64,000 bases of DNA from a virus. The notes under the pieces are model-generated. The model did no database searches and was not told the DNA's origin. It saw only the letters and a list, made by a program, of their open reading frames with translations. The position numbers and the translations under genes were made by a program. Positions 44,384 through 64,000 of this stretch are shown piece by piece (position 1 is the first letter of the stretch; the number at the start of each line of letters is the position of its first letter). Location of the stretch: IMG/VR virus record IMGVR_UViG_3300020411_003715, positions 116,107 through 180,106 of that record; one strand, given 5' to 3'.

Positions 44384-44663
44384 TTGGTTCCTCCATGAGT
44401 TGGTTGTGACAAAACACAACTTGCCCATCGTGATGTTTGTAACAGTCCCCATCGCATGGAAGGGAGAGCTTGTTACGGTTGTTCTCGATAAATTCAATAA
44501 GGTTATCCCGCATAACATTTATAGGGCTTTGGGGGACAACATTAGTCTTATACTGAAGAAAGTCGTGTAATTGCTCTGGGCTTGCTGAGGGGCTTACACG
44601 AACGCCCATCTGCTCCCACACGATGTGTCGGAGTTCTTCGAACCCGACGTCAGGATTCATCAC
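44376..44663 (-). CDS. Small Cys/His-rich hypothetical protein (95 aa)
   Basis: Coupled by short overlaps to both neighbours; LSLPCDGDCYKHHDGQVVFCHNQL. Confidence 0.65.
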   Translation of the reverse strand: MMNPDVGFEELRHIVWEQMGVRVSPSASPEQLHDFLQYKTNVVPQSPINVMRDNLIEFIENNRNKLSLPCDGDCYKHHDGQVVFCHNQLMEEPNG

Positions 44664-45075
44664 GCACCTCCGCTATAGTTAACCTGATGCCGACAAAATC
44701 AGAATCAGGGCCATGATGTTTTTTAACGAATTCTTCTATGAAGCAGGAGTCATCTATGCCGAGGCATTCTGAAACAACGTCTTCAAGAACCTTCACCAAA
44801 TTTGAAACATCTCTTCTTTTATACCGCGTTTTCGCCTTTTTCGGCCACCCCTTATTAAACATTGATGGTAGGTAGTAGTGGACGTTCAGTCGGTACGGCT
44901 TATTTGGATCTAGCGGCTCCCCGCTAAAGTTCACCTGCTTAGCTATCTCTACCCCGGCCTGCGCCTTAAACTTCTTCATTTTTGAGGAAGGTCTGGGCCC
45001 CCGGGTCGTGTAGACATACATCTCATTTACCGATGGCGGCAAGATGGAGATGGTTGCTGAGAATACTTCTTTCAA
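44650..45075 (-). CDS. rusA: RusA-like Holliday junction resolvase
   Basis: LPPSVNEMY and RRDVSNLVKVLEDVVSECLGIDDSCF match the RusA D-x-x-N-x-x-K-x-x-x-D...DD motif. Confidence 0.85.
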   Translation of the reverse strand: MKEVFSATISILPPSVNEMYVYTTRGPRPSSKMKKFKAQAGVEIAKQVNFSGEPLDPNKPYRLNVHYYLPSMFNKGWPKKAKTRYKRRDVSNLVKVLEDVVSECLGIDDSCFIEEFVKKHHGPDSDFVGIRLTIAEVRDES

Positions 45076-45623
45076 GAACCCCTCCTCTTAAACCCACCGG
45101 GGCGAATAGACCTCTCGGCCCCCTTGTGTCGGAAAAACTCACCATCCGGTTCGGAATCATTCTGGGTTCTGAACCAGAGTTCCCGCCCGATCCTATCCAT
45201 ACACTTGCTTATCTTTTTTTTGCGGTCCTCCTGCACGGAGAGCCTTCCTTTGAAATAAATATAGTCCCGTTTAGCTCCAATCACGCCGGGATCTGTATCA
45301 ACGGACGCCTTTCGCATATCCGCGTTTGTTAACCTTTGGTCCGACGCTGCTCTCTGAGAAGCCTCCGCGGTCTTAAGGTCCAACCGTGCCTTGCTGATAG
45401 TAGCGTCGCACGAGTCCTGGGCCACTTGGTCGGTCAGGTACGCGTAGTAAGACAAAAACTCGTCGTAGAGGGTTTTCAAGAAGTCGCTCGATTTTGAGCT
45501 TAGGTCTTTTGGGATCTTTGGCTCTTCGCCCGGTCCACCATCAGCGTCCGGCGAGAACCCGGTCCTCTTTAGATCTTTTTGTAAAGTTTCACGTAGCTCT
45601 AGGAAGATATCCTTCTTTTCCAT
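45072..45623 (-). CDS. Coiled-coil protein, possible UvsY-like recombination mediator
   Basis: All-helical; NADMRKASVDTDPGVIGAKRDYIY resembles the UvsY C-terminal half; lies in the recombination cluster. Confidence 0.45.
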   Translation of the reverse strand: MEKKDIFLELRETLQKDLKRTGFSPDADGGPGEEPKIPKDLSSKSSDFLKTLYDEFLSYYAYLTDQVAQDSCDATISKARLDLKTAEASQRAASDQRLTNADMRKASVDTDPGVIGAKRDYIYFKGRLSVQEDRKKKISKCMDRIGRELWFRTQNDSEPDGEFFRHKGAERSIRPGGFKRRGS

Positions 45624-45634
45624 ACGTCCTCCCC

Positions 45635-46357
45635 CTACGCCTCATCAAAATTTGGTTCACACGCGTGGAGGAACTTACAGCTTCGACAAACCCACTTGCT
45701 GATCTGTCGTGGCGGCTCCGACCCTTCTTTTACGTGGTCTTCAACAAATTTCATTATCTCGCAAACCTTCTCCCAGACACTCGTCTGAAAGTGGACCTTC
45801 ATGTTTCGCATTGCACCGGTTGCCCTGTTCACATACAGAAGCTGACACCTGGGGATGTCTAACGCGTACATGTAGCAGTGGACTTGGTACACGTGCTCTA
45901 TCTTGGGCTTGGTCAGGTTCCTGTAGACGCTTTCGCCCACGGTCTTGATCTCAAGAACCCACTCTTCATCTCTGAATACGCCGTCGCAGTGTCCAAACAT
46001 GTTAAGCTCTTCGCTGGCTACAGGTACCTCTGCCTTAAAGCTGTCAAACTCTTTTTCCAGCTTTGTCTGCAACATGTCATGGAGCGCGTGTCCCATGTCA
46101 AAGAGCATCCTAAGGTCTGGAGGTATTCTGCTTTCCGGATCTTCCCCTATGCGGTCGTACCATATTGCGCGCTTGCAGGCGTTTGGGTGCAGGGAAGAGG
46201 GGTGATAGACCCCTGTCTTTCTCGACCAAGACTCCTTGTTGGACTCTTCGTCGATACGCTCCAGTTCGTTTTTAACATCAAAGTTTATATCTGGCTCGGG
46301 GTTGTCCTCCCGGAGGCAGCGTTCTGGGATCTTAAACCCCTTCTTCTTGTTCGTCAT
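45635..46357 (-). CDS. Cas4-like PD-(D/E)XK exonuclease with Fe-S cluster ligands
   Basis: HPSSLHPNACKR, GHALH, GHCDG, LEIKT, QVHCY and CRSCKFLHAC (1+3 Cys). Confidence 0.88.
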   Translation of the reverse strand: MTNKKKGFKIPERCLREDNPEPDINFDVKNELERIDEESNKESWSRKTGVYHPSSLHPNACKRAIWYDRIGEDPESRIPPDLRMLFDMGHALHDMLQTKLEKEFDSFKAEVPVASEELNMFGHCDGVFRDEEWVLEIKTVGESVYRNLTKPKIEHVYQVHCYMYALDIPRCQLLYVNRATGAMRNMKVHFQTSVWEKVCEIMKFVEDHVKEGSEPPRQISKWVCRSCKFLHACEPNFDEA

Positions 46358-46359
46358 AA

Positions 46360-47127
46360 TTAGAGATCTCTCTTCGCGAACCAGAGGAACTTTTCGTAGT
46401 CCATTATCAGATACTCAGTTCCTCCCACATCGAGTCGGAGGCAGTTCCCTGATAGTACGTAGCTCGCGTGGTTGCTGGTTAGGGTGAATGATTTTTTAGG
46501 CTTTCTTCCGGCAGGGCTTTTTATTTCCCCGAAGTGCTCTAGCTCTTCGTCGCCTAGCTCTTGTGAGGGCAGGATGACTATCTCACCATGCTTCCCAAGC
46601 TCTACAATATATGCGGGGACTTTGCCCTGGCTATACGCCTGCACCCGAAGATGCTCAAGGTCCTGAACGGAGAGAGCGTACTTTCCCCCAGAGGTAGTTT
46701 TCGCCTCCACCAGAATCGAGGGAGTTTTAACGTCCCGACGGTAGCCCCAGACGGCCCCGGAGGCCGGCTGACGCTTGCCCCCGAGATCTTTAGCTATACG
46801 CTTCTCTTGTTTATCGCTCATAGCTTTTTTGTCTGTAAGCACGGCTAGCGCCTCCTTTATTACAATGTCATATGTGTTATCGTAGTATATTTCCTCGGCA
46901 GCCTTTTCCCAGTCCACCCGACCAAGAATCATTCTAGCTAATTCGAGCCTTTTCTCGCTTACATACGTGAGGACCGAAAGACCACTACCTACGTGAGTAA
47001 CGTTGTATAGAGGCTCGTTCTTTGCTGTGTCCGGAGGCTTATGGAAGTAAAGTCCCGGAAGGAAAGGGAGAGCATCTATAAATAAGGTAGAGGGCTTAGG
47101 CCCCACTTGTATGCAAACTCGTGCCAT
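46360..47127 (-). CDS. PD-(D/E)XK nuclease, putative Holliday junction resolvase, with extra N-terminal domain
   Basis: QEKRIAKDLGGKRQPASGA...DVK...LVEAKTT; the first ~95 aa appear to be a separate small domain. Confidence 0.7.
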   Translation of the reverse strand: MARVCIQVGPKPSTLFIDALPFLPGLYFHKPPDTAKNEPLYNVTHVGSGLSVLTYVSEKRLELARMILGRVDWEKAAEEIYYDNTYDIVIKEALAVLTDKKAMSDKQEKRIAKDLGGKRQPASGAVWGYRRDVKTPSILVEAKTTSGGKYALSVQDLEHLRVQAYSQGKVPAYIVELGKHGEIVILPSQELGDEELEHFGEIKSPAGRKPKKSFTLTSNHASYVLSGNCLRLDVGGTEYLIMDYEKFLWFAKRDL

Positions 47128-47129
47128 TT

Positions 47130-48173
47130 TTAGATCCTTGCCAGCACCGCTTCTCGAACTTCTTCGAGGAGTTTTGGTGATTTTGTGAGCATGTCGATGA
47201 CCCCGTCCAAACCGCCCTCAATGCGGTCTTCATAGTCAAGAATGTAGTAAAATCTACCCTTGTTGAACACGACCTTCTGCGCTTTTGCCGTGTTAACAAG
47301 ATCCGCGATCATGTCCACGCCCTCATTGAACTTGAAGACGTACTCACCCTCAGCACCCTCGCTGATCCCATGCTTGCCTTTTGACACCTTCCACTTAACC
47401 TCTTTTCCAACCTTGGTCCCGCCTTGTTTCACAAAGGCCCCCGGTCGCAGGTGGATGTCTACGGCTTTAGCATGCTTTAGCGCGTAGCCCCCCGGCTGCG
47501 TGTAGGGAACATACTTAGCGGAGTGCGCGTTCATGTTCGCACGGACGGGGTTAATCATTATAACGCACGTCTTATTCGGGGAGCCATCCTCCCCGGGCGC
47601 TCTCATGGCACTGTAGAACTTTCGACAAAAGTTACTGAGGAGGCTGGCCCACGTGGCTATCTTGGCGTCTTCACCTAGACCCTTTACCACGTTGTCCTTA
47701 GTCTCCCCTGAACCAAGCTCATTTATTATTAGTAGTTGGAACTCCTGCGATTTAACCAAATCGAGCATTACGTCCAGAAGAACCTCTGCTGGGCGCTCGG
47801 ACGCGGCCTCCTTTAGGTCCACAAAGAGAAGGTTACCGGCCCCGTTAAGGTCTACCCCAGCAAGTTCCATAAACTCAGGGTCGGGCTTGTACCCAAAGCT
47901 CATCCAGGCAACGTTCGCCTCTTTTCCGTACTCGCGCTGGACCTCTGCAATCACCCTGTTTGATAGGTAGTCTTTGCCAACACCGTCTGGCCCAAAAAGC
48001 TGGATCATGGACCCTGCGGGAAAGCCCCCTTTGAGGGCGATATCAAGAGATAATATCCCTGTAGGAAGCCGGGTCTCAAACGGAGTTGCAACGTCAGCCA
48101 TTGGCTGGATTGTTGCAGCGTTCCCCAGCCTTTTTTGGACATTCTTAATTAGTTGACTGAGGTCTTTTGCCAT
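47130..48173 (-). CDS. recA: RecA/UvsX-family recombinase with divergent active site
   Basis: PTGILSLDIALKGGFPAG, GPDGVGKD, PGGYALKH, GKEVKWKVSKGK and KGRFYY align along the whole RecA core. Confidence 0.88.
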   Translation of the reverse strand: MAKDLSQLIKNVQKRLGNAATIQPMADVATPFETRLPTGILSLDIALKGGFPAGSMIQLFGPDGVGKDYLSNRVIAEVQREYGKEANVAWMSFGYKPDPEFMELAGVDLNGAGNLLFVDLKEAASERPAEVLLDVMLDLVKSQEFQLLIINELGSGETKDNVVKGLGEDAKIATWASLLSNFCRKFYSAMRAPGEDGSPNKTCVIMINPVRANMNAHSAKYVPYTQPGGYALKHAKAVDIHLRPGAFVKQGGTKVGKEVKWKVSKGKHGISEGAEGEYVFKFNEGVDMIADLVNTAKAQKVVFNKGRFYYILDYEDRIEGGLDGVIDMLTKSPKLLEEVREAVLARI

Positions 48174-48415
48174 TACTCCCCCTCAACTTCTTTCTTAAGC
48201 TGTGCAAACTCGTCAGCAAGCTCATCAGATATCTCCGTGTGCGTTTCGTAGACAGAGATCATGTCTTCGAGGAGCTTGAGTTTGAATTCTCGAATCATAC
48301 CGTTAGCTGTGCCGGAAGCTACCTTCTCAAGGGCCTCTTCTTCTGTCTCACACAGCTTCATTTTCATAAGGGTGGCAACCACACTTGAGGAGTCGCCGTA
48401 TTTCTCCATGGACAT
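48173..48415 (-). CDS. Hypothetical protein (80 aa)
   Basis: TAATG coupling at both ends; helical acidic sequence. Confidence 0.65.
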   Translation of the reverse strand: MSMEKYGDSSSVVATLMKMKLCETEEEALEKVASGTANGMIREFKLKLLEDMISVYETHTEISDELADEFAQLKKEVEGE

Positions 48416-48690
48416 TATTGCCCTCCTTTGTTTTCAATTGACATTCGATTGTGGAAATCCTCCCGTTCTTTGACGAGAGCGCTTGCATGGTCCTTACCAA
48501 GGATCCCTAAGTTCAGAAGCAACGCCGCGCCGCAGGAAAGCTCTATCACCGCAGTGTCGTGACCCTCCGTTAGGAACATGCCCTTCATAACGTCCCCCTC
48601 CTCCACCATGGTGTTTACGGCACCAACGATTTCTCTGAGGGCTTCACGCTTTAGGGAAAAAATAGTAACTGTGTCGACTGGTTCATTCAC
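48415..48690 (-). CDS. Hypothetical protein (91 aa)
   Basis: GGAGG SD before the GTG start; coupled to the next gene. Confidence 0.65.
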   Translation of the reverse strand: MNEPVDTVTIFSLKREALREIVGAVNTMVEEGDVMKGMFLTEGHDTAVIELSCGAALLLNLGILGKDHASALVKEREDFHNRMSIENKGGQ

Positions 48691-48705
48691 GTTGAGTCCT
48701 CCCCG

Positions 48706-48774
48706 CTATCTAAAGTCTCTGAGGTAGACAATAAAACCTGCCCCGACAATAAAACCTAAAGTAAAAGTCATCAT
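48706..48774 (-). CDS. Hydrophobic micropeptide MMTFTLGFIVGAGFIVYLRDFR (22 aa)
   Basis: Translated by hand; ATGA overlap with the upstream stop, GGAGG SD, fills the gap exactly. Confidence 0.55.
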   Translation of the reverse strand: MMTFTLGFIVGAGFIVYLRDFR

Positions 48775-49181
48775 TCCTCCAGAACCTCCTGTAGCGTGTG
48801 TTTGTGTAGAAATATTGGTGTAAGCTCCCCAACCCAAGCCCCTATGACGTTGTACTCGAAAAACTCCATAGCCCCTTCTCGGGACATGTTACTTCTCATC
48901 AAAACCTCTATGCACTTGTCATAATCATAGGTCGCCACAGGTCTATCGATCCCGAACCTTCTGGAGAGTCCGATAAAGGCGTCCTCAAACCCGTCTGCAA
49001 ACAAGAGGTCTTCGTCATGCTCGCCCTTTTCGTACGGGGTCGAGTAAAGACTCCCGTCGGTTGACAAAGACTTATCACTTTCTGCAGCCGCCAGCGCCTC
49101 AGCCTCGGAGTCGTAGGGGCCAACCTCTTCCTCGTCTTGGGTGGCAGGCGATGCTTTTGAGTAATACCAGTTTCTCTCCAT
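48771..49181 (-). CDS. Conserved-type phage hypothetical protein
   Basis: ADGFEDAFIG...VATYDYDKCIEVL...FFEYNVIGAWVGELTPIF, a pattern I recognise from uncultured aquatic phages; function unknown. Confidence 0.75.
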   Translation of the reverse strand: MERNWYYSKASPATQDEEEVGPYDSEAEALAAAESDKSLSTDGSLYSTPYEKGEHDEDLLFADGFEDAFIGLSRRFGIDRPVATYDYDKCIEVLMRSNMSREGAMEFFEYNVIGAWVGELTPIFLHKHTLQEVLEE

Positions 49182-49217
49182 GAGTAAGTTCCTTATATTA
49201 GAGTTCCCATAAGGGCA

Positions 49218-49514
49218 TTAGTTTTGTGACTCTTTTAGCCAATCAAGGGCAAAATTGCTTCTGAGCTTAGCCTCAGTTGTCACAAGAGACAATGTGTCGT
49301 GATCAAGCTCTATGGCTCGCCCGTCCTCTGGATCATACACGCTGGCGATCTCCAGGCGACCATCACGAGCAAGCATCATCACCCGGACGGGGTGTTCGAT
49401 CCAAAACCCATCCATTGAATAAAAGTTCTTCATGGGAGAAACTTCGAAATCGAACGTCTTCGAAGTAAGACATAATTTACCAAAAGGCGTGTCGAGACCG
49501 TTGTCCATTATCAC
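49218..49514 (-). CDS. Hypothetical protein (98 aa)
   Basis: GGAGGAG SD; in operon. Confidence 0.6.
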   Translation of the reverse strand: MIMDNGLDTPFGKLCLTSKTFDFEVSPMKNFYSMDGFWIEHPVRVMMLARDGRLEIASVYDPEDGRAIELDHDTLSLVTTEAKLRSNFALDWLKESQN

Positions 49515-49795
49515 TACTCCTCCTGCTGCCGTAGCTGCTCTCTAAGCTCTCGGACGCTCCGCGTTCTTCCCCGTAGCTTTTTATTTAGTTGTCTAATCTC
49601 CTGGATACGCTTGGTACCAAGAAGTCTATAAGCCCTGCGGGTTACCGCAGCGTCAGAGCGCTTCAGCTTTCTGGCTATTCGGGTGACGTGGTGTGTCGGC
49701 CAAAGCCTCCGCACCACTTCATCCTCATGCCTGCTCCAGGCTCTTTTTATCACGGGGTAATACCGTAGGTACTCAGGTCTTCGCCCGTCTGACAC
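49514..49795 (-). CDS. Myb/SANT-like HTH protein (likely start GTG 49753)
   Basis: WSRHEDEVVRRLW...IARKLKRSDAAVTRRAYRL fits W-x-x-x-E-D...IA-x-x-L-x-R-S. Confidence 0.65.
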   Translation of the reverse strand: MSDGRRPEYLRYYPVIKRAWSRHEDEVVRRLWPTHHVTRIARKLKRSDAAVTRRAYRLLGTKRIQEIRQLNKKLRGRTRSVRELREQLRQQEE

Positions 49796-49947
49796 TCAAT
49801 GTGAAAGATCTCACCTGTCTCCAATTGAGTAACTACGGCGACGGTCTCTTCAGACCGCAACCGTTCAAGCATATCTCGAAGAGCCTCCTTTGGGCTTTCC
49901 GCTTCTAATTCGTCGGTTATTTCCACTGAGTAAGATTTGCCCATCAT
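49750..49947 (-). CDS. Small acidic hypothetical protein (65 aa)
   Basis: Starts in the repeated junction TGGAGTGTAAATGATG. Confidence 0.65.
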   Translation of the reverse strand: MMGKSYSVEITDELEAESPKEALRDMLERLRSEETVAVVTQLETGEIFHIECQTGEDLSTYGITP

Positions 49948-50204
49948 TTACACTCCACGGTTCCGTCCTCGTCTATGTCGATACCTTCGACATTGGCTTT
50001 CTGGACAAACCAGCCTTGTAGGTTTTCGTTTATATGCTTCACTAGGTCTTCCGACGAGATCGCGCAGTCTGTGTCGAGGTGCCAAGCCGGGTAGTTATCC
50101 GGCGTGTACGAAACCTCCTTGATGGCCGTATCACCGTCCATCACCCACAGAACCGCAGATGCCCCGTCAGTAAGGGCGACATTGCCCCGCTCGTTATCTG
50201 CCAT
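49944..50204 (-). CDS. Small acidic hypothetical protein (86 aa, ends ECK)
   Basis: GAGGAG SD; ends in the junction repeat. Confidence 0.65.
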   Translation of the reverse strand: MADNERGNVALTDGASAVLWVMDGDTAIKEVSYTPDNYPAWHLDTDCAISSEDLVKHINENLQGWFVQKANVEGIDIDEDGTVECK

Positions 50205-50207
50205 CAG

Positions 50208-50354
50208 TTACTCCTCGGCATACCGACTTAACGCCTCGTGCGCGATCCGCCGCATATTGTCGAAATCCGCCAGGATGTCGGATGTCGGCGTATCGTCGTC
50301 ATAGGCGTGCTGGCATATTAGCTCCAGCGCCAGCAGCAATTCTTTTTCCATCAT
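50208..50354 (-). CDS. Small hypothetical protein (48 aa, MMEKELLLALELICQHAY...)
   Basis: Translated by hand (below the track cutoff); starts in a junction repeat and fills the gap. Confidence 0.65.
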   Translation of the reverse strand: MMEKELLLALELICQHAYDDDTPTSDILADFDNMRRIAHEALSRYAEE

Positions 50355-50590
50355 TTACCCTCCAACCAGCCCTTGAGGCCCTCTCTCACGTCAATTTCTG
50401 AAGGAACTCCCTCACCGTCGTCGTGCCAAGGCTCGCCCTCATTAAGGCAGTTTCCTCTATTGTCGTACAAATCGTAGAAGCGGTCCTTGTCTGCTTCGGG
50501 CTCCTTGCCCTGCCAGCAGAGGACCACATCCACTTGTTTATTGTTTATTACGTAGGACGCTACGGTTTCGCTGTGAAGCTTGCTCATCAC
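50351..50590 (-). CDS. Small hypothetical protein (79 aa)
   Basis: Starts and ends in junction repeats; FYDLYDNRGNCLNEGEPW. Confidence 0.7.
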   Translation of the reverse strand: MMSKLHSETVASYVINNKQVDVVLCWQGKEPEADKDRFYDLYDNRGNCLNEGEPWHDDGEGVPSEIDVREGLKGWLEGK

Positions 50591-50940
50591 TTACACTCCT
50601 CTAGGCTTTTGAGGAGAGCAAGGTGGTACTGCTCCGCCTGTCCTTTTGAGCCATCCTGAGGAAAGCTTCTTGAGTTACGTGCCTCCTCTAGGAGCCTCTC
50701 GAAAAGGCTAATAGCCTTTCGGCGCATACTTTCTTTTGTCTCGCCCCAATGGGCGAATTCTGATTCATCGTCCACTATTAGCTCTACGGTTAGCGCGGAG
50801 TCATTAACGTATTCCACACCGTCTAAGAAACCGGTGGCCGCTTGTTCTGATGTAGGCCCATAGATAATGGACCCATTATTTTCAGGATTATCTGTGTCGC
50901 TTTTTATGGCGACCTTGTATTTACTATCAGTTTCCATCAC
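50587..50940 (-). CDS. Small hypothetical protein (117 aa, ends ECK)
   Basis: Starts and ends in junction repeats. Confidence 0.7.
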   Translation of the reverse strand: MMETDSKYKVAIKSDTDNPENNGSIIYGPTSEQAATGFLDGVEYVNDSALTVELIVDDESEFAHWGETKESMRRKAISLFERLLEEARNSRSFPQDGSKGQAEQYHLALLKSLEECK

Positions 50941-51117
50941 TTACACTCCATCCAGTTGTTCTTCATCTCTGGCCCTCCGCTCCAGGTACTCCTGTAAGTG
51001 GGATTCGTAGCCAGCGCCGGGGACTGGTTGAACGCCCTCTATGTAGTCGCACAGAATGGAAATAATTGATTGGTCATTCCACCCCATTAGTCGCTGATAT
51101 TCTCGTATTAGTTCCAT
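50941..51117 (-). CDS. Small hypothetical protein (58 aa, MELIREYQRLMGWNDQ...LDGV)
   Basis: Translated by hand; TGATG overlap with the polymerase stop; flanked by 28-bp direct repeats. Confidence 0.65.
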   Translation of the reverse strand: MELIREYQRLMGWNDQSIISILCDYIEGVQPVPGAGYESHLQEYLERRARDEEQLDGV

Positions 51118-53006
51118 CACTTACACTCCAGCCAGTTGTCCCCGTACTTGCTTGACGTTTCCAAAGGAACTGCCAAGTCAAAGTCAAAGGGATGCATCAT
51201 TAGGTCTCTGATGCGGTCGTTAAATTCTTTGTCATCTACGTACTCATCAGGAACTTCAAACACGATCTCATCGTGTACCTGAATCACCATTCGCGTGCCT
51301 GATGCCGTGATCAGGGGGTCTTCCCAGATACGAACCATGGCCATCTTTGTAATATCTGCCGCAGAGCCCTGGATTGGAGAGTTTTTTACTTTCCTCTCGG
51401 CCTGGGCTTGGTCTGACCCAACTCGGGAACTCAGCCCCGGCACAAGCCTTCTTCGGCCGAGAATTGTTGAACAGTGTCCCGAGCGCCTTGCGGATGAGAT
51501 TGCTGACTTAAAGTACTTTGTAACTTTAGGGAACGCCGCGAAGTATTGCCGAATCAGCATTCTTGCTTCGTCCGTAGAGCACCCCAATGTTGCGCCGAGA
51601 GCCCCGGCCCCCTGCCCGTACATGAGACCAAAGTTAATAGCCTTCGCGCCTTTTCTGTGGGAGAGTAGCCTGCGGTCGTATTCACTCAGGTCTTCGTCGT
51701 TATCATCACGTTCCCTGGCCAACATAATATGCTCATACGGTACTTTGAACATTTTAGCAGCCGTAGATGAGTGGACGTCCATGCCGCCAATAATAGCCTC
51801 GGACAAGGTTTCATCTTCAGAGAAGTGGGCAAGGATTCTCATCTCAAGCTGCGCGTAATCTGACGCGAGAAGTCGATGGCCCGGACTGGGCAGATAGGCA
51901 GACCGTATGTATGGGGGCTGGTTCTGAAGGTTTGGCGCGGATGAGCTGAGTCGTCCCGTCCGAGCCCCAGTCTGATTGAAAGACGCGTGGATGCGTCCAC
52001 CCCGGTGAATCTTTTCAAGAAGATTAGATATGTAGGTGCCGAGCTTTTTATCCAGGTCCCGGTAGTGCAGTAGCCTCTCGGCGTATTCACAGCCAGCGCT
52101 TTTCCATTTGCCCAGAACTTCTTTGTTAAGCTGAGGTTTCCCTTTTTCCGTGTAGGATATTGGGGACCGGCCCAGATCGTTGAAAAAGAAATTACCCATT
52201 TGATCGTTACTGTTTAGGTTCACATAAAGCTTGCCAGTCGCCCGCCCAAACCACTTCTGTATGTCTAGAAGCTCTTCCTCGATCAGAGGGGCTTGAGAGA
52301 GAAGTGCGTCTTTGTCGATAAGAACGCCTGTGCGCTCCATTTCCCAAAGAACTCTCGTAAAAGGAACCTCAGTTTCTAGGTAATAGTCCCAGAGTGTTGG
52401 GTATGTGTCCGCGTCAATATTAATCCCTAATAACTCCTCCCTAAGCTCAAAGAAAAGCTTGTAGGTAGCGTATGCATCTAGAGAGGCGTAGTTAGTTACT
52501 ATTTGCTCATTTTCGTCATCGAGGAGAACTTCGTGAAGCTTCCTTTTTCGCAACATTTTTCCGAAAACAGCCTTAAACGGGACCATCTCGATGCCCAAGT
52601 ATCTTTCCGATAAATATTTCAAATCGTGCGGAAGGGTGTCATCCGCCAGAGCGTGCATGACCATGGTGTCGAACACGCGGTAATGGTTTCGATTGGCGTG
52701 CCGGTTCACATCTATGCCGGAGTTAAGGAGCATCCAGCAGTCAAAGTTTGCGTTGTGCATTACTAGTTTTATTTCTGGATGCTCAAGCATTTCCTTGAAG
52801 TAGGGGATGACCTCTGGCCATACGGCCCAACGTTCTTCCCCATCACTCAGGGCTAAAATTATTGCGCGATCCTTTTGCCGGGAGAGACCTGTGGTCTCCG
52901 TGTCCACGGCGACTATTTTCTTAGATTGGAGCCGTTCTGCCGCAGCAATAGCCTCTTCCGGCTCTCGGACGCAGATCGGCTCTGGGAGTATTGAGAACAT
53001 CCCCAT
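51117..53006 (-). CDS. polA: Family A DNA polymerase (3'-5' exonuclease plus polymerase, no 5' nuclease)
   Basis: VDTETTG, HNANFD, YASLDAYAT, TGRLSSSAPNLQN, DYAQLEMR, KAINFGLMYG (Phe at the E. coli 762-equivalent position), IQGSAAD and QVHDE. Confidence 0.97.
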   Translation of the reverse strand: MGMFSILPEPICVREPEEAIAAAERLQSKKIVAVDTETTGLSRQKDRAIILALSDGEERWAVWPEVIPYFKEMLEHPEIKLVMHNANFDCWMLLNSGIDVNRHANRNHYRVFDTMVMHALADDTLPHDLKYLSERYLGIEMVPFKAVFGKMLRKRKLHEVLLDDENEQIVTNYASLDAYATYKLFFELREELLGINIDADTYPTLWDYYLETEVPFTRVLWEMERTGVLIDKDALLSQAPLIEEELLDIQKWFGRATGKLYVNLNSNDQMGNFFFNDLGRSPISYTEKGKPQLNKEVLGKWKSAGCEYAERLLHYRDLDKKLGTYISNLLEKIHRGGRIHASFNQTGARTGRLSSSAPNLQNQPPYIRSAYLPSPGHRLLASDYAQLEMRILAHFSEDETLSEAIIGGMDVHSSTAAKMFKVPYEHIMLARERDDNDEDLSEYDRRLLSHRKGAKAINFGLMYGQGAGALGATLGCSTDEARMLIRQYFAAFPKVTKYFKSAISSARRSGHCSTILGRRRLVPGLSSRVGSDQAQAERKVKNSPIQGSAADITKMAMVRIWEDPLITASGTRMVIQVHDEIVFEVPDEYVDDKEFNDRIRDLMMHPFDFDLAVPLETSSKYGDNWLECK

Positions 53007-62326: not shown

Positions 62327-64000
62327 ATGTCTGGAATATCTGGAAGATTATCTCGGTACGCCCTCGGGGGCAGATCCAGGGCGAAAACGGTGGGGAAGCC
62401 GGAGAGCTTTTACCCAAGCCCGTTTTTTGACGTAGCGCAGAACTACTTACCGAAAACCATTAAAGAGACGTTTGACTGGTGTCTCTATTACCAGCTTACC
62501 AACCCTCTTATTAACGCGGTCACCAGCAAGCTGGCCACATACCCAATCACCGATTTAATTTACGAGGACGATAACGAGGGAGTTGTCGATCTGTACAAGC
62601 AGATTTTTGAGAGACAATTTCTCCTTAGACAGTTTCTCGTAGAGGTCAATCTCGACAGATACACCTATGGCAATGCGTTTGTTTCTATATCTTTCCCGTT
62701 CAAAAAAGTGCTCTCCTGTAAGGAATGCAAAGCCGAATGGGAAGCAAAAGACGTCAAGTACAAGTGGAAAGACTTCCAGTTCCATATCGACTGTGAGCAC
62801 TGCAGCCACTCAGGGGTGGCCAAAGTAAAAGATGAGCCTATCAAGTCCAGCACGCAGATTCGGCTTATTCGGTGGAACCCAAAGAATATAACGATTCGAC
62901 ATAATGAAATAACCGGCAAGTCAGAGTATTACTACTCGATGCCCAGGCACCTGAAAAACGACATCATGCTTGGTAAGCCATCAATGATCGAATCGGTGCC
63001 GCAGGTTTTTATCAGCGCCATAAAGAAGAAGAAGTCAATACTTCTTGAGGGCTCAAAACTATTCCATTCCAAGCGGGCATCCATCTCAAGAGATCCGTCG
63101 GACAGCGGATGGGGAGCACCCCTTATTCTTCCAGTTTTGAAGGACATCTTTTTTCTTCAGGTGCTAAGGAAGGCGCAAGAGGCGGTGGCGATGGAGCACA
63201 TTGTCCCTATGCGTGTGATGTTTCCACAGGTCACCACTGACGGGAACAACCCGTATGCCCATATTAATCTCCAGGACTGGCAAACAGAGGTGTCCGGGCA
63301 GATCAAGAAGTGGCGGATGGATAACAATCACATCCCAGTCATGCCCGTCCCTGTGGGCTATCAGATGATAGGTGGGCAAGGGAAGTCTCTGCTCCTGCAT
63401 CAAGAGCTTAGGATATATAACGACCAGATTATCGCCGGCATGGGCGTGCCTACGAGCTTTTTCTACGGGGAGGCTCAGTATTCGGGTGCCGCTGTTAACA
63501 TGCGTGCGCTTGAAAATGAGTTCCTGGGTAACCGGCAGGACATGTTGAGGCTTGTTGAGTTCATTCGAGACCGGGTATGCGCGTTCTTGGATGTGCCCAA
63601 GATCGACCTTAAGTTTAAGCCGTTCAAAATGGCAGACGATATCCAGCGGGCGTCATTCGATATGAATCTTGCGAACGCAGGAATGATCAGTAGAAGGTCG
63701 TTCCTAGAGACGCGGGACTTCAGTTTCGACACCGAGCAAGAGTTGCTTCATGCAGAGGGCAAGAAGCTGAACCGGGCGCAGCGAGAGGGCATGATATCTA
63801 ATGCCGAGTCCCAGGGCGAAGCGATGCTCATACAGACAAGGTATCAGATACAGGCCCAATCCCTTCAGCAAGAGGCCCAAGCGCAGATGCAGCAGCAAAT
63901 GCAGCAACAGATGCCCCAGCAACAGATGCCCCAGCAGCAGGGGGCGCAGCAGCAGGGGGCGCAGCAGGGGGCGCAGCAGGCCCCGGGACAAGAGGGCGGG
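62327..64000 (+). CDS. Portal protein, 3'-truncated (558 codons in window), with zinc-ribbon insertion and Gln-rich tail
   Basis: Translated by hand, open to the window end. NPLINAVTSKLATYPI, DRYTYGNAFV, SGWGAPLILPVL and IIAGMGVPTSFFYG are portal-like; CKEC...CEHC insertion. Confidence 0.8.
   Translation, partial: MSGISGRLSRYALGGRSRAKTVGKPESFYPSPFFDVAQNYLPKTIKETFDWCLYYQLTNPLINAVTSKLATYPITDLIYEDDNEGVVDLYKQIFERQFLLRQFLVEVNLDRYTYGNAFVSISFPFKKVLSCKECKAEWEAKDVKYKWKDFQFHIDCEHCSHSGVAKVKDEPIKSSTQIRLIRWNPKNITIRHNEITGKSEYYYSMPRHLKNDIMLGKPSMIESVPQVFISAIKKKKSILLEGSKLFHSKRASISRDPSDSGWGAPLILPVLKDIFFLQVLRKAQEAVAMEHIVPMRVMFPQVTTDGNNPYAHINLQDWQTEVSGQIKKWRMDNNHIPVMPVPVGYQMIGGQGKSLLLHQELRIYNDQIIAGMGVPTSFFYGEAQYSGAAVNMRALENEFLGNRQDMLRLVEFIRDRVCAFLDVPKIDLKFKPFKMADDIQRASFDMNLANAGMISRRSFLETRDFSFDTEQELLHAEGKKLNRAQREGMISNAESQGEAMLIQTRYQIQAQSLQQEAQAQMQQQMQQQMPQQQMPQQQGAQQQGAQQGAQQAPGQEGG
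63881..63985 (+). repeat. Low-complexity Gln-rich tandem repeats (QQQMP, QQGA)
   Basis: CAGCAACAGATGCCC twice and CAGCAGGGGGCG three times. Confidence 0.9.

Follow-up and report, generated by a model that had tools for sequence, protein, structure and literature searches.

A junction motif shared by small unrelated genes behind the DNA polymerase gene of a marine phage matches the polymerase gene's own 3' end

The stretch of viral DNA analysed here (the window, 64,000 nucleotides (nt), bases 116107-180106 of the 180,106-bp IMG/VR record IMGVR_UViG_3300020411_003715, rated complete by CheckV) contains a tightly packed minus-strand operon, in which genes for a helicase, a UDG-like protein, DnaB, a primase and a 383-amino-acid (aa) protein are followed by polA, encoding a family A DNA polymerase. 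Behind polA stands a row of small genes (g59, g117, g79, g48, g86, g65, g93, g98, g136, g91 and g80), the first of which are joined by a repeated motif, referred to here as the joint. The 16-mer WGGAGKGTAARTGATG occurs in five exact minus-strand copies, at 49942, 50349, 50585, 50935 and 51115, and a sixth, degenerate copy lies at 50202-50216; the copies stand at successive gene junctions behind polA. None of 100 dinucleotide-preserving shuffles contained a match to the 16-mer (0 expected), and the original prediction, which had listed the five junctions and the degenerate copy at 50202 from the letters of the sequence, was borne out in this respect. The closest cultured relatives reach no more than 33% polA identity, which points to an uncultured marine phage lineage as the source of the window; near-identical contigs were found in Tara Oceans and other marine metagenomes. 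The genes and joints of the array, in the direction of transcription, are as follows (ORF, open reading frame; SD, Shine-Dalgarno sequence; AF2, AlphaFold2).

51117..53006, minus strand: polA, family A DNA polymerase, 629 aa, ends NWLECK-TGA (ORF; Pfam DNA_pol_A_exo1 and DNA_pol_A on an identical product)
51112..51139 (core 51115-51130), minus strand: joint J1, polA tail plus SD GGAG plus TGA overlapping the g59 ATG (16-mer match)
50941..51120, minus strand: g59, acidic ORFan, 58 aa from the second start, ends QLDGV-TAA (ORF; no Pfam or PHROG family)
50932..50959 (core 50935-50950), minus strand: joint J2, 27/28 identical to J1
50587..50940, minus strand: g117, two-module fusion (N-half to ~50775, C-half 50587-50774), ends LEECK-TGA
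50585..50600, minus strand: joint J3, breakpoint between the window and scaffold L154, and partner of J1 in the polA-to-g79 contig L188
50351..50590, minus strand: g79, small protein family predicted to fold, ends GWLEGK-TGA (family alignment; AF2 model)
50349..50372 (core 50349-50364), minus strand: joint J4, 21/24 identical to the polA tail plus joint
50208..50354, minus strand: g48, acidic ORFan, ends EE-TAA (ORF; no Pfam or PHROG family)
50202..50216, minus strand: joint J5, degenerate (SD, TAA, 3 nt, ATG), at distance 4 from the core 15-mer
49944..50204, minus strand: g86, acidic ORFan, ends TVECK-TGA (ORF; AF2 model)
49942..49957, minus strand: joint J6, before g65
49750..49947, minus strand: g65, the interval's first gene common to many relatives (8/14 loci)

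Within the joint, GGAG lies 8 nt before an ATG, and a TGA overlaps this same ATG (TGATG). In frame with the ATG the joint also has a TAA, and the ATG is immediately preceded by GTG or ATG; in the third reading frame, no stop lies inside the motif. The genes terminated by TGA end in ECK (polA, g117 and g86) or EGK (g79), and the 58/59-aa gene g59 ends in DGV via TAA, in frame with the ATG of the next gene. SD, stops in two frames, tandem starts and gene ends are all as first described, and the accompanying claim that the constraint acts on DNA or RNA, not on protein, holds as well, since the joint is conserved as DNA and its copy in g59 is read in another frame. The layout is that of translational coupling: the SD lies within the last codons of the upstream gene, and the stop overlaps or abuts the next start, either as TGATG or as TAA, one codon and ATG.

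The motif is restricted to this cluster. Across the whole 180,106-bp genome, the 15-mer core (up to 2 mismatches) has no sites beyond these 5, and among ~215 ORF-level genes a start context within 2 mismatches of the motif is found solely here; it is not a common property of gene junctions in this genome. The motif is also the sole dispersed 15-mer of normal complexity with at least 3 copies. The one further dispersed three-copy 15-mer, at G000:C1:23210, 23477 and 23516 and contained in a 300-bp stretch, is probably a repeated protein segment. The whole array is 100% identical in at least 6 independent assemblies and is therefore not an assembly artefact, but real and widespread.

Similarity between the copies extends past the 16-mer. 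The polA end (51112-51139) and the g59 end (50932-50959) agree at 27 of 28 positions, and the g79 end agrees with the polA tail plus joint at ~21 of 24. The lengths of polA tail kept by the copies differ (28, ~24, 17 and 16 nt), and every copy begins at or before GGAG. An ungapped scan for decayed polA-tail copies (>=17/24) returned the clear copies only, 4 against 0.19 expected. If the joint were a convergent regulatory or translational signal, such as an operator or reinitiation signal serving a RegA-like or polymerase-mediated repressor, recombination would have no part in it. The good SD spacing (8 nt), the stop-start overlap and the tandem starts agree with such a signal, as do the position of all copies at the starts of consecutive early-region genes and the unstructured RNA around them, which favours initiation. 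However, the identity reaches 8-12 nt upstream of the SD, where it has no role in initiation and is read in a different frame, and neither the other ~210 starts of the genome nor homologous cassettes at a second site in relatives (described below) carry the motif. A search for the RegA family of translational repressors gave no match and was equally silent in control genomes. A purely convergent signal is considered improbable.

The first comparison set consisted of 14 relatives whose polA is 65-80% identical. All of them keep the polA C-terminus NW-x-ECK, and in 12 the motif (up to 2 mismatches) closes polA, the following gene taking its start from a TGATG overlap; C-terminus and end motif are also kept in relatives down to 61-65% polA identity. 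Five relatives were searched whole and hold one motif copy each. A second exact copy was seen in one other lineage only (L012, behind a 78-aa gene ending in LECK), and a run of copies exists, among the lineages compared, only in that of the window. The conservation at the polA end, together with the single copy in relatives searched whole, identifies the motif as polA's native 3' terminus joined to the overlapping start of the gene that follows. At its 3' end g59 repeats the polA tail in a different reading frame, and this identity in differing frames points to a duplication at the DNA level. The idea of a universal, independent adaptor had to be given up, because the joint is a copy of the polA 3' end that occurs only once in each of the five relatives.

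Scans of larger collections added little. An 18-mer scan of viral contigs yielded 6 stretches, 2 of them new (an unrelated gene ending in RECK and an in-frame chance match), the 16-mer scan gave mostly unrelated single matches among the matches listed, and a polA scan of metagenomes contributed few new loci, among them L178 and L182. A junction duplication of another kind is present in another lineage, where a 21-nt perfect tandem duplication (L015:7879-7920) begins exactly at the polA stop/next-gene start and keeps the frame.

The genes between the joints, here called cassettes, are small (48-117 aa), acidic ORFans. Pfam and PHROG searches assigned no family to g59, g117, g48, g86 and g65 and gave a sub-threshold match only for g79; none of the 14 relatives has a counterpart of g59, g79, g48 or g86 behind its polA. 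A repeated boundary is the expected outcome when one small gene is duplicated in tandem together with its junction and the paralogs then diverge. All-against-all BLASTP, however, found no similarity among the cassettes, and their paralogy was rejected; their lengths span 48-117 aa, and their homologs stand single in other contexts. An origin of the array by tandem duplication is therefore extremely improbable.

The g117 protein is a fusion of two modules: its N-half is found elsewhere as the C-terminal part of a different 122-aa protein, and its C-half is found elsewhere alone with various N-termini; the near-identical contig L146 has this half as a separate gene of 62 aa. Homologs of g117 elsewhere end without ECK, and in the g79 family the core is conserved and the last ~10 residues are hypervariable between homologs; both observations suggest that the ECK-type tails were acquired and are not native. 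No locus of the g86 family was found in viral contigs. AF2 models of g79 and g86 (mean pLDDT 85.6 and 74.8) predict folded proteins with reasonable confidence, and structure searches with both models gave no PDB match at E <=0.001. The cassette products, a set of small acidic proteins with neither a family nor a structural match, are candidates for functions in host take-over or anti-defence.

The array had been compared to an integron without attC hairpins, whose cassettes would be exchanged by short-homology or site-specific recombination. In the site-specific version, a recombinase would use the 16-mer as attachment site and capture cassettes behind polA. As in integrons (IntI, attI, attC, Pc), promoterless and unrelated cassettes stand in order behind one fixed site, are expressed from upstream and vary in content among relatives. 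However, the complete 180-kb genome contains neither a tyrosine recombinase (PF00589; 14 of 14 control genomes positive) nor a serine recombinase (PF00239; controls positive). For the five junctions with their flanks (66 nt each), folding is no more stable than in shuffled sequence (z -1.5 to +1.6); they share no common structure and are free of hairpins and imperfect inverted repeats. What would serve as attachment site is just the coding end of polA, present once in each of the 5 relatives searched whole, and some of the breakpoints described below lie outside it. Promoter-like sites in the array region number 6 against 8.4 expected, none of them at any joint, and terminators are not in excess. 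A site-specific system is very improbable on these grounds, and the claim of site-specific recombination was dropped. From the comparison with integrons, the promoterless, unrelated and variable cassettes can be kept; integrase, attC hairpins and signs of site-specific cutting are all missing, the joint is an ordinary coding end, and the analogy holds for architecture only.

Genomes at least 99.9% identical to the window differ exactly at this array. L154, a 180.9-kb Tara scaffold, is identical through polA, g59 and g117, diverges at 50594 inside J3, and continues with the 70-aa gene c23 and then a 141-aa gene. L146, a 180.6-kb contig, is identical from 50774 downstream; upstream of this point it carries c32, a spacer and an exact joint copy before the stand-alone g117 C-half, and its 62-aa gene is flanked by two identical 17-mers. 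The 505-bp contig L188 (ERR599013) is 100% identical to window positions 51381-51115 and 50599-50347, and the two parts overlap in the common 15-mer, so that polA is joined to g79 through one joint. L188 would represent either a joint-to-joint deletion or a pre-insertion state, with the crossover in the joint either way. The g117/g79 junction of the window can be read as an L154-type g117 end plus an L188-type polA-joint-g79, with a 6-nt overlap, GGAGTG. The points at which homology starts or stops coincide with boundary sequence, at 50594 inside J3 and, in L146, right after the joint copy; the homology of g79 between L178 and the window also starts at the joint. The proposal that unrelated small ORFs are added, lost or shuffled behind the polymerase agrees with these variants, as content and order differ even among near-identical genomes. 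Several further assemblies break within or near joints or g117 (L167 at window position 51134, L155 at 50624 and L193 at 50656), which fits co-existing variants in the same samples. The divergent tail of another contig, L187, was taken as a low-coverage chimera with unrelated GC-rich DNA and disregarded.

Among more distant relatives, the polA-recA interval is hypervariable (1.1-4.1 kb). The flanking polA and recA module are syntenic, and the content between them varies by genome; relatives with identical gene order and diverged junctions, the alternative that had been envisaged, were not what the comparison returned. In the window, g79 follows g117; in L178, an 87% identical g79 stands directly behind polA, via the joint, and this polA is only 61% identical to that of the window, which indicates lateral transfer of the g79 cassette. 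The gene c23 is located after g117 in L154, after g79 in L178 and after c29 in L013, and c29 is the first gene behind polA in L012, which has its exact second joint there, and the second in L013. Cassette order is combinatorial. In L013, the tail of the gene preceding c29 resembles a decayed polA tail; the alignments that yield decayed copies in L013, L178 and L196 contain indels, and these copies are suggestive only.

Two relatives (L203:2971-5194 and L201) carry homologs of the g117 C-half, c32, g79 and c141 as one 2.2-kb block at a separate hyperplastic site, ~80 kb from their polA, and the junctions of this block contain no joint motif. The matching second site in the window's genome (~G000:C1 67,832-67,838, outside the window) is empty, and the same families stand here behind polA. 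The lack of the motif from the same gene families at the second site indicates that a gene acquires it at the polA site. In the L196 lineage, the g79 insertion has its left end ~25 nt upstream of the g79 start, where it carries a decayed g117 tail plus joint, and its right end 22 nt into the next gene; the transfer was plainly illegitimate on both sides. A sibling of L196 contains a 62-aa GIY-YIG fragment between two cassettes (L199:2607-2795), which is absent from L196 and is possibly what is left of a homing endonuclease within this variable interval.

The array is probably the outcome of polA-anchored recombination, which repeatedly stacked genes behind polA, the displaced genes keeping the SD/stop/start unit of the polA tail. 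The joint would be a translation-initiation unit native to the polA end, consisting of the last codons with the SD GGAG, the TGA and the overlapping GTG/ATG. New small genes would have been added directly behind polA several times in this lineage. In each event, one crossover may have taken place in polA or its tail, which offers a long conserved anchor, and the other may have used little or no homology, often the GGAG(TG) common to gene tails. Each insertion would have displaced the former first gene downstream along with 16-28 nt of polA tail, and the frame of the incoming gene would run into this tail, yielding ECK/EGK ends via TGA and the DGV end via TAA. The copies may have been retained as SD, stop and start for coupled translation in an operon without internal promoters. 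As direct repeats of 15-28 bp, they could then be used by the phage's RecA-like protein, PD-(D/E)XK nuclease and RusA to delete or exchange cassettes.

Such stacking would explain the conservation from GGAG onwards, the unequal tail lengths, the frame-dependent ends ECK, EGK and DGV, and the absence of the motif from the same gene families at other sites. That all copies begin at or before GGAG is expected under stacking, because only events that kept the SD would have survived. The explanation builds on the polA origin of the joint and its local multiplication, on unrelated cassettes in combinatorial order, on breakpoints at or beside joints and on one joint-to-joint contig. To these it adds the order of events, the microhomology crossover and the translational coupling, which we infer from the sequences. 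Homology-facilitated illegitimate recombination, in which a homologous anchor is combined with an end of micro- or no homology, is described for natural transformation. The polA locus is alike in its long anchor on one side and the very short GGAGTG on the other, and differs in that the process is, for this phage, deduced from sequence only.

Several points weigh against repeated stacking at polA, or against a role of the joint in recent exchanges. L188 could show the ancestral arrangement rather than a deletion and, as a single short contig, could in principle be a library chimera. Window and L154, compared over 8,413 bp, differ by only two mismatches, both within 30 nt of the breakpoint, and the same holds for window and L146 over 6,775 bp. 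This clustering shows that the latest exchanges were homologous crossovers inside g117 with a diverged donor, not in the joint, and that the junction-level breakpoints are older. A third breakpoint, seen in the near-identical genome L152 and in contig L162, lies at 49570 inside g93, where there is no joint. The events may have run in either direction, as insertion stacking here or as loss in relatives, and the divergence of the joints does not rise monotonically with distance from polA. Finally, the closest homologs of the g86 family also end in TVEC(K/E), so part of the g86 tail may be native, or the g86 homologs may also stand at joints. For the claim of short-homology recombination at the joint, these findings leave a mixed picture: breakpoints in or beside joints and the joint-to-joint contig L188 support it, whereas the two recent exchanges crossed ~30 nt away inside g117, the breakpoint at 49570 is at no joint and the transfer into the L196 lineage was illegitimate.

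The joint would have a larger part if it were the main engine of both gain and loss, as in a cycle in which homologous recombination of two joints excises a circle with one joint and at least one gene. The circle would enter another genome by one crossover at that genome's polA joint, leaving joints to the left and right of the insert. In favour of such a cycle, joint copies border every cassette, L188 has just the structure that J1-J3 recombination would yield, the 62-aa gene of L146 lies between two identical 17-mers, and a RecA-like protein, a nuclease and RusA are encoded next door. A precedent exists in the PeSL (promoter-early stem-loop) mini-circles of phages RB49 and phi1 (PMC2839356). 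Yet a crossover in the core would not produce the unequal polA-tail lengths upstream of it, 15-28 bp is a short homology, both recent exchanges crossed inside g117 and thus outside the joint, and the g79 transfer into the L196 lineage was illegitimate on both sides. A cycle of this kind has a small but not negligible probability. There is a similarly small chance that the phage's general recombination proteins insert circles or fragments with a single polA-tail joint at the end of polA, which would make this end a recombinase-free capture site from which the array grows on the polA side, as an integron grows from attI. Each capture would then regenerate the joint, and the two-frame stop would let almost any incoming ORF end and the next one restart; were this a general rule, large lytic phages would have their 'attI sites' in the ends of conserved genes.

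Whether its genes were stacked by polA-anchored recombination, as we favour, or moved in cycles, the array is a variant of the modular shuffling known from phages, as in PeSL cassettes and boundary sequences, and is not an integron. The nearest known counterpart of the array, the PeSL cassette of T4-type phages, unites a sigma-70-type promoter with a terminator stem-loop in ~100 bp of intergenic sequence (Arbiol et al. 2010, PMC2839356; Comeau et al. 2014, PMC4122927), and the authors of these studies drew a comparison with integrons as well (PMC2839356; PMC4122927). PeSL and joint arrays both place a short, repeated expression signal on either side of ORFans in a hyperplastic region. Insertions, deletions and replacements at these repeats distinguish close relatives, the SD and start of the gene downstream form the end of the element, and no dedicated recombinase is involved. 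In contrast to PeSL, the joint measures 16-28 nt, lies within coding sequence and has no promoter or hairpin; it appears to act in translation, through stop, SD and start, and can be traced to the 3' terminus of a single essential gene. A further comparison is with the short conserved boundary or linker sequences of phage mosaic junctions and with mycobacteriophage Island3, whose inserted orphan gene 68 has a 3' end that duplicates, in nucleotide sequence, that of the gene before it, which implies recombination between short repeats (PMC3029335). This is exactly the relation between g59 and polA. Island3 shows a single event with a ~50-bp repeat in the same frame, whereas the joint array has 5-6 copies in a row, down to 16 nt, in two frames and with population variants.

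The locus bears on how new small genes can enter phage genomes and be tried out there while operons stay intact. It is unusually legible, as the origin of the joint is identified, the lengths and frames of the copies record separate events, and variants co-circulate at >=99.9% identity. Whether phage mosaicism stems from linkers, as Botstein proposed, or from illegitimate recombination followed by selection, as Hendrix did, is said to be an old debate. The array suggests that both views hold at once: rare microhomology events would make the joints, selection for coupled translation would keep them, and the joints would feed further shuffling. A 16-nt sequence that closes one ORF in either of two frames and opens the following one could also be of use as a compact natural operon linker.

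Downstream of the joints, the small-gene row continues to a recombination module, in which a RecA-like protein, a 255-aa protein, a Cas4/PD-(D/E)XK-like nuclease, a 183-aa protein and RusA follow each other.

48173..49795, minus strand: remaining variable interval with g93, g98, g136, g91 and g80; joint absent
44650..48173, minus strand: conserved recombination module (Pfam; syntenic in relatives reaching that far)
47130-48173, minus strand: RecA-like protein (Pfam RecA, 1e-24)
45635-46357, minus strand: Cas4/PD-(D/E)XK-like nuclease (Pfam Cas4, exactly at cut-off)
44650-45075, minus strand: RusA resolvase (Pfam RusA, 1e-8)
minus strand: g255, between the RecA-like protein and the Cas4-like nuclease, and g183, between the nuclease and RusA

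In L152 (9438-10287), g93 ends early and is followed by ~850 bp of other small genes, which include a second g65-family gene and homologs of c28 and c16 from the L011 and L015 lineages. Elsewhere in the window (11551-42025), four very large plus-strand ORFs (2690, 2318, 1913 and 2735 aa) stand in a row and presumably encode virion or injected proteins. Both ends of the record (window 63934-64000 and G000:C1:1-50) consist of a 12-nt tandem repeat with the unit AGCAGGGGGCGC, and the assembly probably opens inside this tandem-repeat region.

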